Counted from the stretch's first letter, positions 1 through 2,642 are shown. The stretch is DNA of 22,932 nt from a virus (IMGVR_UViG_2690316152_000015:1-22932); one strand, 5' to 3'. Notes: generated from the sequence alone by a model not told the origin. Translations and numbers: made by a program.

Positions 1-888
1 ATGCCGCTGCTGGATAAGCTGCGTGAGCAGTACGGGGTCGGACCGGTATGCAGTGAACTGCATATTGCCCCGTCAACGTATTACCACTGTCAGCAACAGC
101 GACATCATCCTGATAAACGCAGTGCCCGTGCTCAGCGCGATGACTGGCTGAAGAGAGAGATACAGCGCGTATACGATGAAAATCATCAGGTGTACGGTGT
201 GCGTAAAGTCTGGCGCCAGTTGTTACGCGAAGGTATCAGGGTGGCCAGATGTACAGTGGCGCGCCTCATGGCGGTTATGGGACTTGCCGGTGTTCTCCGG
301 GGTAAAAAGGTCCGTACTACCGTCAGCCGGAAAGCCGTTTCCGCAGGCGACCGCGTAAACCGTCAGTTCGTGGCAGAACGTCCTGACCAGCTGTGGGTGG
401 CTGATTTTACTTACGTCAGCACATGGCAGGGCTTCGTCTATGTGGCGTTCATCATTGATGTGTTTGCCGGATGTATCGTGGGGTGGCGAGTCTCATCGTC
501 TATGGAAACGACATTCGTGCTGGATGCACTGGAGCAGGCGTTGTGGGCCCGTCGGCCGTCCGGCACAGTCCATCACAGTGATAAAGGTTCTCAGTATGTA
601 TCACTGGCCTATACGGAGCGACTAAAAGAAGCAAAACTGCTGGCATCAACAGGGAGTACAGGTGACTCGTATGACAACGCGATGGCGGAGAGCATCAATG
701 GTCTTTACAAAGCGGAGGTAATACACCGTAAGAGCTGGAAAAACCGTGCAGAAGTGGAACTGGCCACACTCACGTGGGTGGACTGGTATAACAATCGACG
801 ATTGCTGGGAAGGCTGGGTCATATCCCTCCGGCAGAAGCAGAAAAAGCTTATTATGCTTCCATCAGAAACGATGATCTGGCAGCCTGA
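1..888 (+). CDS. IS3-family transposase OrfB (DDE integrase catalytic domain)
   Basis: 295-aa ORF with DDE-type motifs (WVADFTYV, HHSDKGSQY, DNAMAESINGLYKAE); sequence strongly resembles IS629/IS1203 orfB as I remember it; window starts exactly at its ATG, so orfA lies outside. Confidence 0.93.
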   Translation: MPLLDKLREQYGVGPVCSELHIAPSTYYHCQQQRHHPDKRSARAQRDDWLKREIQRVYDENHQVYGVRKVWRQLLREGIRVARCTVARLMAVMGLAGVLRGKKVRTTVSRKAVSAGDRVNRQFVAERPDQLWVADFTYVSTWQGFVYVAFIIDVFAGCIVGWRVSSSMETTFVLDALEQALWARRPSGTVHHSDKGSQYVSLAYTERLKEAKLLASTGSTGDSYDNAMAESINGLYKAEVIHRKSWKNRAEVELATLTWVDWYNNRRLLGRLGHIPPAEAEKAYYASIRNDDLAA

Positions 889-930
889 GTTCACAGATAA
901 AACACTCTCCAGGAAAACCGGGGCGGTTCA
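889..930 (+). repeat. Right terminal inverted repeat of the IS element
   Basis: Reverse complement begins TGAACCGCCCCGG, typical IS3-family end; junction with phage DNA at 930/931. Confidence 0.6.
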
Positions 931-2642
931 AACGGGCTATTTGAATCCTGATAATCATAACCACTAGTTAATTGATTGGTTTTATAACCATCCATTCCCT
1001 GTAAAGAGTTTTCAATCTGTGAATAATTTTGTTCGGTATCATTCACACGACGCATATATTCTTCGTAGGAGATAGCTTTACCATCAAGTAACCGTTTATG
1101 GCTTTCTAGCTCGTTGTCCCTGATTTGTTGCAATTGTGTTAAAGCATTCAGAGCATCAATCGGATCAGCACCCAACATCATTTTATAAACGTTTTCAGTA
1201 TTCTGATCGATTAGCGCCTGGCGTTTCGCGGCTGCGTCTTCCTGAGAGATTAAGCCCAGAGCCAACGCATCATTCACATCTTTTAAGCTGTTTTGCAACT
1301 GGCTATTCTGGGAAGTGATAGACGCGGCAACTTGTCCTTGCAATTTAACATCAAGTGCATTCAGTCGCTTGATTGCGTCCTCGCGTGCTTTCTGTGCTTT
1401 TTCTGCGGTTTCCTTCGCTTTTTTAGCTGCATCTTCTGCTTTCTTCTTGGCTTCTTCCTCGGCTTTCTTCTCATTACCAGACTTACCCAATGAAGCTGGT
1501 CTAGTTGGTGTAGCTGGGATAGTCAAATCACGGTTAGGATCTGCCTTGCGTGTCAGATGTTCCCCATTATCGACAACAATCAGAGCACCGCTTGAAGTTT
1601 TATAAGAATTACCAAAACGTTTCTTAAATCCTTCAACATCAAAGCCAGCAGTACGAGGATCGACACCAGCACCACGGATCGCGGCCTTTTCCCAATCTGC
1701 CAGATTATTCCAACGCTTTTCTTTATTGTACTTGTCAATAATCTTTTGAGCGTCTTTATGGTTGGCGTTAAGAATACCACCCGTTGCGGTCTTACCTTCT
1801 TTATTCAGTCGGTCTAATGCCCTGAATAGAGAACTCTTTTCCCAATCAATATTAAACCATTCAAATAACCAGTTTAAGCTATCAACAAGCGGACCAGTAA
1901 TGGTCATGCCAACACCTTTCAGGTTATTTTCCAGCTTACTGATATTCTGAGAAAATTTATCGTATTTCTTGGCGTTTTCTTCGGTGACGTTAACAGATTG
2001 ATTCTGAATAGCGATCATTGCCTCTTGAGCACTATTATATTTCTCAAGCTGGCTGGTCATATGACTTGAATCACTGGCTAAAGATTCCATCATGAATTTG
2101 ATTTCAGCCATTGATTTTCCGGCTTTCTTCATGTCATAGAACACTTGGATCGCCGCTTTCATACCACCTTGCGGATCTGTCATGAAGTGAGCATAGTTTT
2201 CTAACTTAAGGCCAACCGATTCTAAGTCATCGGCAATACCACCACCGTTAGCCCATGCATCACCCATTTTATCTAAGGTGTCTTTGTTGATATCACCAAA
2301 TTTTTCAACTGTTAAGCCAGTACCAGAGAACTCCTTTTCTAATTTTTGAAGGGATTCAATCGAGAGTCCGGTCGCCTTAGATACTTCTGAATACTGTTTA
2401 ACGTATTCCGCACCAGCTTTAGCGGCTGCAACCACTGCGGTCGCAACTAAGCCGATACCACCAGCAGCTAAACCAGCAGAGCCAGCGATCCCACGAAGAG
2501 ATCCAGTCAAACCAGACAAGCCACCGCCAAAATCAATATTACTTGCCTTTTCAGACAAACTATCGAGAAGGTCAGCGGCTTCATTGGTACTTCTCCTTAG
2601 ACCTTTATTATCCCCTTCTATTGTTACTATATGTTTTGTCAT
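891..2642 (-). CDS. Tail tape measure protein, N-terminal about 570 aa; 3-prime end disrupted by the IS (last 12 codons are IS-derived)
   Basis: 583-aa ORF directly downstream of a G/T-like chaperone pair; Gly/Ala-rich N-terminal region and long coiled-coil-like region typical of tape measure proteins; codons 894-929 lie inside the IS inverted repeat (tail EPPRFSWRVFYL). Confidence 0.7.
   Translation of the reverse strand: MTKHIVTIEGDNKGLRRSTNEAADLLDSLSEKASNIDFGGGLSGLTGSLRGIAGSAGLAAGGIGLVATAVVAAAKAGAEYVKQYSEVSKATGLSIESLQKLEKEFSGTGLTVEKFGDINKDTLDKMGDAWANGGGIADDLESVGLKLENYAHFMTDPQGGMKAAIQVFYDMKKAGKSMAEIKFMMESLASDSSHMTSQLEKYNSAQEAMIAIQNQSVNVTEENAKKYDKFSQNISKLENNLKGVGMTITGPLVDSLNWLFEWFNIDWEKSSLFRALDRLNKEGKTATGGILNANHKDAQKIIDKYNKEKRWNNLADWEKAAIRGAGVDPRTAGFDVEGFKKRFGNSYKTSSGALIVVDNGEHLTRKADPNRDLTIPATPTRPASLGKSGNEKKAEEEAKKKAEDAAKKAKETAEKAQKAREDAIKRLNALDVKLQGQVAASITSQNSQLQNSLKDVNDALALGLISQEDAAAKRQALIDQNTENVYKMMLGADPIDALNALTQLQQIRDNELESHKRLLDGKAISYEEYMRRVNDTEQNYSQIENSLQGMDGYKTNQLTSGYDYQDSNSPFEPPRFSWRVFYL

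Follow-up and report, generated by a model that had tools for sequence, protein, structure and literature searches.

The tape measure gene of an Escherichia coli prophage of the siphovirus type appears to have been split by the simple insertion of an IS629 element, an explanation that we regard as highly probable as a whole, including the predicted block of tail assembly. One copy of IS629 would have inserted at codon 571/572 of an 809-codon gene by copy-out-paste-in transposition, duplicating 4 bp of the target (AACG) and deleting nothing. The gene would thereby have been divided into a 5′ ORF (891-2642, minus strand) that ends 12 codons into the IS and a 238-codon 3′ remnant beyond the element, with all of the distal tail genes following the remnant. 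Short-read assembly would then have broken inside the IS and placed the two halves on different contigs, and it is this break that makes the window, the whole stretch of 22,932 nucleotides analyzed here, seem to finish in a transposase gene.

Features of the window:
1-930, plus strand: right-hand 930 nt of the 1310-bp IS629 (IS3 family), IS positions 381-1310, from nucleotide matches
1-888, plus strand: IS629 orfB, catalytic part of the OrfAB transframe transposase, 295 aa, with its ATG at window position 1, from translation and Pfam
906-930, no strand: right terminal inverted repeat (IRR) of the IS, ending ...CCGGGGCGGTTCA, mapped from the arms of a reference copy
931-934, no strand: right copy of the 4-bp target-site duplication AACG, from junction comparison
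891-2642, minus strand: chimeric truncated tape measure ORF, 583 aa (571 native and 12 IS-encoded residues) closed by TGA, from translation and alignment
931-2642, minus strand: native 5′ part of the tape measure gene, codons 1-570 and two bases of codon 571, of 809, from alignment with the 39EVA homolog
2646-3337, minus strand: putative tail assembly chaperone pair, ORFs 3029-3337 (102 aa) and 2646-3020 (117-124 aa), from profiles and frame analysis
4064-4537, minus strand: tail tube protein gene, 157 aa, from Phage_TTP_11 (1.9e-6, just under the cut-off) and the RefSeq name of a homolog

The insertion sequence at the left edge of the window

The full-length reference copy of the element is a 1310-bp copy in E. 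coli O145 RM9872 (L003, 821-2130), and window bases 1-930 correspond to positions 381-1310 of this copy. There are 4529 E. coli records that match window 1-930 at 80% coverage or more, with 930/930 identity in the best matches among the matches listed, and a search with the same bases finds a median of 4 matching places per E. coli genome. The reference copy has terminal inverted repeats of 25 nt that are 88% complementary (arms 821-845 and 2106-2130) and is flanked by a 3-bp duplication, AGC. In the window, the last bases of the right terminal repeat, at position 930, are ...GGGGCGGTTCA; G+C content is 52-57% in the first 930 bases and approximately 40% to the right of the junction.

The preliminary description had called the element IS629-like, and the reference copy is indeed 99.6% identical over 1310 bp to the copy annotated as IS629 in phage JLK-2012 (JQ347801.1). 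By this comparison the element is IS629 or an isoform, an assignment taken from a depositor-annotated copy and made among subtypes, IS1203 included, that differ by 4-5% (PMC3271280). A near-full-length copy is present in 168 deposited phage or prophage records. IS629 is among the commonest IS elements of pathogenic E. coli; in O157:H7 genomes, prophages or prophage-like elements harbor 62% of the copies (PMC3271280).

The part of the element contained in the window is occupied by orfB, the product of which matches the Pfam families rve (1.1e-25, 90.3 bits against a cut-off of 32.6), HTH_21 (5.3e-18), rve_3, and rve_2. The start of orfA is visible on the contig that carries the other end of the element (L005), within the 121-nt IS left end described below. 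On the source contig of the window, the ALIL frameshift pseudoknot (Rfam RF01497) is found at full length with 120.9 bits against a gathering threshold of 50, spanning window positions -44 to 72, and RefSeq labels the reference copy in RM9872 as "IS3 family transposase, programmed frameshift," with an ALIL pseudoknot. Elements of the IS3 family move by copy-out-paste-in transposition through a circular intermediate, catalyzed by the OrfAB frameshift product. The transposase genes read on the plus strand, antisense to the tail operon.

Compared with IS629 as known, with its isoforms IS1203 and IS3411, from O157:H7, non-O157 STEC, and Shigella, the element has the same size of 1310 bp, the same imperfect 25-nt terminal repeats (TGAACCGCCCCGG...), which begin with TG and end with CA as in the IS3 family (IS51 group), and the same orfA/orfB arrangement with an ALIL frameshift pseudoknot and an rve-type DDE transposase. 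Its location in a prophage is like that of most O157:H7 copies, and its 4-bp duplication falls inside the 3-4 bp range of published IS629 target duplications (PMC3271280). The element itself is without any difference from IS629; only the insertion site is new.

The interrupted gene is a tape measure gene

Over residues 1-571, the product of the chimeric ORF can be aligned gap-free with the same residues of an 810-aa protein from E. coli 39EVA, and the identity is 94%. After F571 the ORF continues with the IS-encoded tail EPPRFSWRVFYL; its stop codon, TGA, is the complement of 891-893 and lies 38-40 nt inside the IS, and thus the ORF reads entirely through the 25-nt inverted repeat. An earlier reading of the window as containing about 570 native residues, with the last 12 codons and the stop derived from the IS, was exact to the codon. 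The chimeric protein has been deposited as CTT74881.1 and is the sole member of its 90% cluster.

Identification of the gene as encoding a tape measure protein comes from several sources. The intact homolog matches phrog_13674, "tail length tape measure protein," at 4.7e-64, with residues 37-803 aligned to profile positions 39-752 of 764, and it also matches nine other tape measure PHROGs. The truncated protein matches phrog_13674 only at profile positions 27-260 of 764, and the missing residues 572-809 are those that phrog_1506, phrog_20905, and phrog_21688 cover with their C-terminal parts. In Pfam, TMP_2 is sub-threshold for the truncated and intact proteins (14.7 bits against a cut-off of 30.2).

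Synteny is provided by the tail tube gene at 4064-4537, the homolog of which in relatives is called "phage tail tube protein" by RefSeq. In the window together with its relatives, the tail tube gene is followed by a Gp38_N gene, then by two small ORFs that resemble chaperone genes, the tape measure gene, and the genes for a distal tail protein (phrog_1302), a tail protein of 217 aa, a DUF6950 protein, and a tail-tip protein of 1258-1259 aa. The second chaperone-like ORF (2646-3020) is in the -1 frame of the first (3029-3337); the pair matches Phage_TAC_13 at 1.6e-4, below the Pfam cut-off, and the tail assembly chaperone family phrog_344 at 1.8e-7. From PHROGs, synteny, and size, and not from Pfam alone, the assignment of 891-2642 as a genuine tape measure gene is sound. 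The gene occupies the same slot as those for siphovirus tape measure proteins of the lambda gpH type, with the tail tube gene and a chaperone pair of two ORFs ahead of it and the genes for the distal tail and the tip behind it, and the intact protein is of similar length, about 800 aa, with full-length matches to tape measure PHROGs. It differs from these proteins in being very distant from those of cultured phages, in its TMP_2 score below the Pfam threshold, and in the interruption of its gene.

Two further observations concern the surroundings of these genes. The chaperone genes are, unusually, separated from the tail tube gene by a Gp38_N adhesin gene. In the AT-rich block at 16036-22380, PADLOC, Pfam, and PHROGs gave nothing solid.

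The tape measure gene is uninterrupted in relatives, where it encodes 808-810 aa, compared with 571 native residues here, which upholds the earlier claim that the IS truncates the gene. The possibility that the gene naturally ends at residue 571 in relatives was considered and rejected: at least 80% of the 2433-bp 39EVA gene is covered in 42/5426 complete E. coli genomes, and in these, as in the IS-free Logan contig L006, the gene runs straight through. Among the matches listed, all 30 at 100% coverage are in one piece of 2427-2433 bp. By alignment, then, the predicted protein is without the conserved C-terminal 238 residues of its relatives.

The remainder of the gene in the same draft assembly

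The window corresponds to positions 79-23010, reversed, of the 51.8-kb contig CYBG01000029.1 in assembly GCA_001285145.1. This contig ends 78 nt to the left of window position 1, still within the IS, of which it holds 1008 unbroken nucleotides. The preliminary description had suggested that the left flank of the IS be sequenced and searched for the rest of the gene and for a target-site duplication, and an in silico version of this check found both, on another contig of the same assembly. When the C-terminal 239 aa of the 39EVA protein were used in a word-indexed search of proteins, only 5 clusters came back, with full-length proteins absent from the result; one of the clusters included a 205-aa protein, CTT72439.1, with an accession close to that of the chimeric protein, CTT74881.1. 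CTT72439.1 is encoded, from an internal ATG, on the 60.8-kb contig CYBG01000025.1 of GCA_001285145.1. At the end of this contig, 121 nt from the left end of the IS are fused to the missing 3′ part of the tape measure gene, a remnant of 238 codons. The remnant is followed by genes for the distal tail protein (186 aa), the 217-aa protein, the DUF6950 protein (139 aa), and the tail-tip protein (1259 aa), and further along by genes for an M15 peptidase and a number of small proteins; lysis genes, too, are there at full length.

The junctions agree with insertion of a single element. With the junction marked by a slash, the right junction in the window is GGTTCA/AACGGGCT, or in longer form ...CCGGGGCGGTTCA/AACGGGCTATTTG. 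The left junction is ...TTTAGCAAACG/TGAACCGCC, and the end of CYBG01000025.1 in window orientation reads ...GCATTAAATTTAGCAAACG/TGAACCGCCCCGGGAATCC..., with the left AACG copy adjoining the IS left end (L005 positions 125-122). The empty site in the IS-free loci L006 and L001 is TTTAGCAAACGGG, with one copy of AACG; since the intact relatives have one AACG and there is one on each side of the IS, AACG is a target-site duplication. Removal in silico of the IS and one AACG produces an uninterrupted 809-codon ORF, the product of which is identical at 795/809 positions to the intact 808-aa protein P0009 encoded by L006 (98% identity) and at 761/810 to the 39EVA protein. When the joined DNA is compared with L006, a single 11-kb HSP extends across the junction. 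The IS ends at the two gene halves are oriented as for one element, and no target sequence has been lost. The source assembly contains two stretches of the IS, positions 1-121 and 303-1310, which by script agree with the reference copy at every base (121/121 and 1008/1008); the 181 nt between them, IS positions 122-302, are missing from both contig ends.

These findings bear directly on the earlier view that the IS had replaced the 3′ end of the gene, with distal tail genes deleted and a remnant prophage left behind. Viewed within the window alone, where there is nothing to the left of the IS, such a view is understandable. However, CYBG01000025.1 carries the 238 3′ codons as well as full-length genes for the distal tail, DUF6950, tail-tip, and lysis proteins, directly beside the IS left end and with the matching duplication, so that replacement and deletion can hardly be maintained. 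It is unlikely that CYBG01000025.1 derives from a second copy of the prophage, because the flanks fit base for base around one AACG. The preliminary description had proposed that the distal tail genes are displaced or lost: displaced they are, by only 1314 bp, but they have not been lost. Nor do the AACG duplication, the 809-codon ORF obtained on excision, and the colinearity with relatives support the suggestion of a rearranged remnant.

Nearly all of the tested structural genes on the two contigs are full length compared with their counterparts in two IS-free relatives. Full-length matches were lacking for genes truncated by a locus end, for divergent mosaic segments, and for one 345-aa ORF without a close counterpart. 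As far as these comparisons reach, no lesion of the prophage other than the IS insertion is visible. The same left junction is found on at least one metagenome scaffold (ENA ERZ28645480, L008), which indicates an allele inherited in a lineage and no assembly artifact. In a third-party assembly, GCA_045081485.1, a contig is identical to the CYBG01000025.1 locus (L005) over 10,720 nt and breaks off at the first base of codon F571, 2 nt before the IS boundary.

That the two gene halves lie next to each other on either side of the IS is inferred from the duplication and the colinearity, neither contig spanning the IS. It is conceivable that the element subsequently recombined with a further copy of IS629, inverting or translocating a segment and separating the gene halves and, with them, the head and proximal tail module from the distal tail module. 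Both contigs end inside the IS, with 181 nt of its interior on neither; IS629 is usually multicopy in E. coli, with the median of 4 matching places per genome noted above; and the duplication tells of the original insertion only and not of present linkage. We nevertheless consider such a rearrangement unlikely. It is without positive evidence, the IS ends have the orientation of a single element, the flanking modules are both complete and colinear with relatives, and the identical left junction occurs again in the metagenome scaffold. The 1008 nt of unbroken IS on CYBG01000029.1 may also suggest that there were few identical full-length copies to confuse the assembler. Simple insertion, with the gene halves still flanking one element, is the explanation that we prefer.

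A prophage lineage without cultured relatives

Homology to IS-free prophages in complete E. coli genomes begins at window position 929. All of the relatives match from this position, and an IS at this site was found in 0/5426 of the complete genomes. The phage part of the window gave no megablast match among 50,697 deposited phages (INPHARED), and tblastn with the reconstructed protein detected only distant tape measure proteins, at most 42% identical over part of their length, the best match being phage DCP80 with 36% identity over 71% of the length. According to these searches, the host prophage belongs to a lineage that about 1% of complete E. coli genomes carry and that is without a cultured representative at the megablast level. 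Like the IS-inactivated E. coli prophages already described (the Sakai Sp prophages and the IS629 copies in Stx phage genomes), it has IS629 in a morphogenesis gene of a lambdoid-style prophage; unlike those examples, the prophage comes from a lineage that has no cultured relative in INPHARED. No Stx genes were found in the examined regions of the prophage.

Predicted consequence for virion production

The truncated product would be without the C-terminal region that anchors the tape measure protein in the tail-tip initiator complex, and tail assembly would consequently not be started. In phage lambda, the C-terminal helix of gpH occupies the lumen of the tail tip and is gripped by gpI (PMC10721106), and in TP901-1 infection depends on the last 60 residues of the tape measure protein (PMC5099701). 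For both phages it is known that the length of this protein determines how long the tail becomes. It is on the basis of these lambda and TP901-1 data, together with the absence of the PHROG-covered region 572-809, that we infer a block in tail assembly. Transcripts of the distal tail genes would, in addition, have to traverse 1.3 kb of untranslated antisense IS, so that polarity on the distal tail genes is presumed. A promoter/terminator scan of the IS detected nothing above chance, with 2 terminators against 1.0 ± 1.4 expected. The prophage is probably tail-defective and on induction would be expected to produce DNA-filled tailless heads, without infectious particles.

A different outcome would follow if the disruption were tolerated, that is, if the 571-residue fragment, alone or together with a separate C-terminal fragment (CTT72439.1), still built tails, possibly shorter ones. 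Tolerance would fit with the presence of an ATG in the 3′ ORF itself and with the persistence of the allele in more than one sample, but a dead prophage predicts such persistence equally well. We know of no functional split tape measure protein that has been described. In-frame internal deletions of tape measure proteins do lead to shorter, functional tails (PMC5099701); however, the truncation here is terminal and not an internal deletion, and C-terminal residues are required in TP901-1 (PMC5099701) and are located in the tail tip in lambda (PMC10721106). Tolerance of the disruption therefore seems to us highly improbable, and a tail-defective prophage remains the expected phenotype.

Another possibility is that IS629 acts as a reversible lock on virion production, with precise excision restoring the 809-codon gene in a subpopulation of cells. 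The suggestion arises from the perfect 4-bp duplication and from the strong promotion of IS629 excision by IEE (IS-excision enhancer), an activity that has been described, in strains that carry IEE. The lineage with the interrupted gene has been seen in at least one isolate and at least one metagenome. If the lock existed, an otherwise intact, uncultured prophage lineage would be regenerated in a subpopulation. We think a lock of this kind very unlikely, and the insertion is better regarded as a plain disruption of the tape measure gene.

Significance of the insertion

Disruption of a prophage tail gene by IS629 is an already known kind of event, and only the site is new. Insertion of IS629 into prophage morphogenesis genes is a well-documented path of prophage decay in E. 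coli. The importance of the present case is mainly one of annotation: what looks like a truncated prophage at a contig edge is actually complete but for one IS, and the "583-aa hypothetical protein" CTT74881.1 and the "205-aa hypothetical protein" CTT72439.1 are the halves of a single tape measure gene. A general lesson is that a contig ending in an IS is not to be taken as a deletion. The host prophage lineage is mildly interesting by itself, apart from the insertion.

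Lineage and gene content of the prophage

The window prophage (931-22932), together with its relatives from E. coli 39EVA and a Logan contig, represents an uncultured temperate siphovirus lineage. Megablast against 50,697 deposited phage genomes found no match to the prophage, whose tape-measure protein shares at most 36-42% identity with any phage protein. Homologues of the prophage are present in 56 of 5426 complete E. coli genomes, and many of the genomes with homologues are from pigs or ETEC strains. Protease and capsid are fused in a single gene product of 670 aa (Peptidase_S78 and Phage_capsid).

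The order of the tail module is unusual for a siphovirus in the placement of two genes:

3383-3889, minus strand: 168-aa protein with a T4-type Gp38_N adhesin domain (Pfam, 3.9e-15)
4595-8089, minus strand: 1164-aa fibre with Gp34_trimer and Peptidase_S74 domains

The Gp38_N gene separates the chaperone genes from the tail tube gene, upstream of which is the fibre gene, the most variable one among the relatives (61-83% identity). Judged from the reading frames, the chaperone pair may have a frameshift of the phage lambda G/GT type with a non-canonical slip site. Relative to the first chaperone-like ORF, the second lies in the -1 frame, which becomes open only at position 3044 (minus strand). 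Within the overlap (3029-3044, minus strand) the sole plausible slip site is A_AAG, immediately before the TAA stop (GTA AAG TAA), and this candidate site is identical in the 39EVA relative.

An AT-rich block of ~6.4 kb (16036-22380; 33-41% G+C), possibly a slot for morons or accessory genes, separates the large terminase gene from a small-terminase-like one:

14044-15948, minus strand: large terminase gene
16985-17800, minus strand: Rha/Ant-like regulator, the only recognisable gene of the block
22381-22932, minus strand: small-terminase-like gene (phrog_57), at the window edge

The seven other ORFs of the block have no significant match in Pfam, PHROG or PADLOC, the 123-aa ORF at 21286-21657 giving only weak PADLOC matches (~7e-4).

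Insertion sequences in the lineage

In E. coli 39EVA (L001 3005-3702 and L007 11205-11579) the related prophage adjoins a truncated cytosine permease gene, which is likely its integration site, and encodes a serine recombinase at its opposite end. Insertion of IS elements in this prophage lineage is recurrent, since the 39EVA prophage has a separate insertion of its own, an IS1A near the lysis genes.

Before breaking, the contig of the window (CYBG01000029.1) reaches 1008 nt into the IS, versus only 121 nt for the contig with the left end (CYBG01000025.1), which suggests that the source genome repeats only IS positions ~122-302, perhaps in copies that are partial or divergent, and does not contain many identical full-length IS629 elements.

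The IS-disrupted allele is in circulation within a lineage and not confined to one isolate, because, among the matches listed, an identical left junction (…TTTAGCAAACG joined to TGAACCGCCCCGGG; L005 1-125) is found on a metagenome scaffold from a different sample (L008 1-80; ENA ERZ28645480, scaffold_1130), and five more similar contigs lie beyond those matches.
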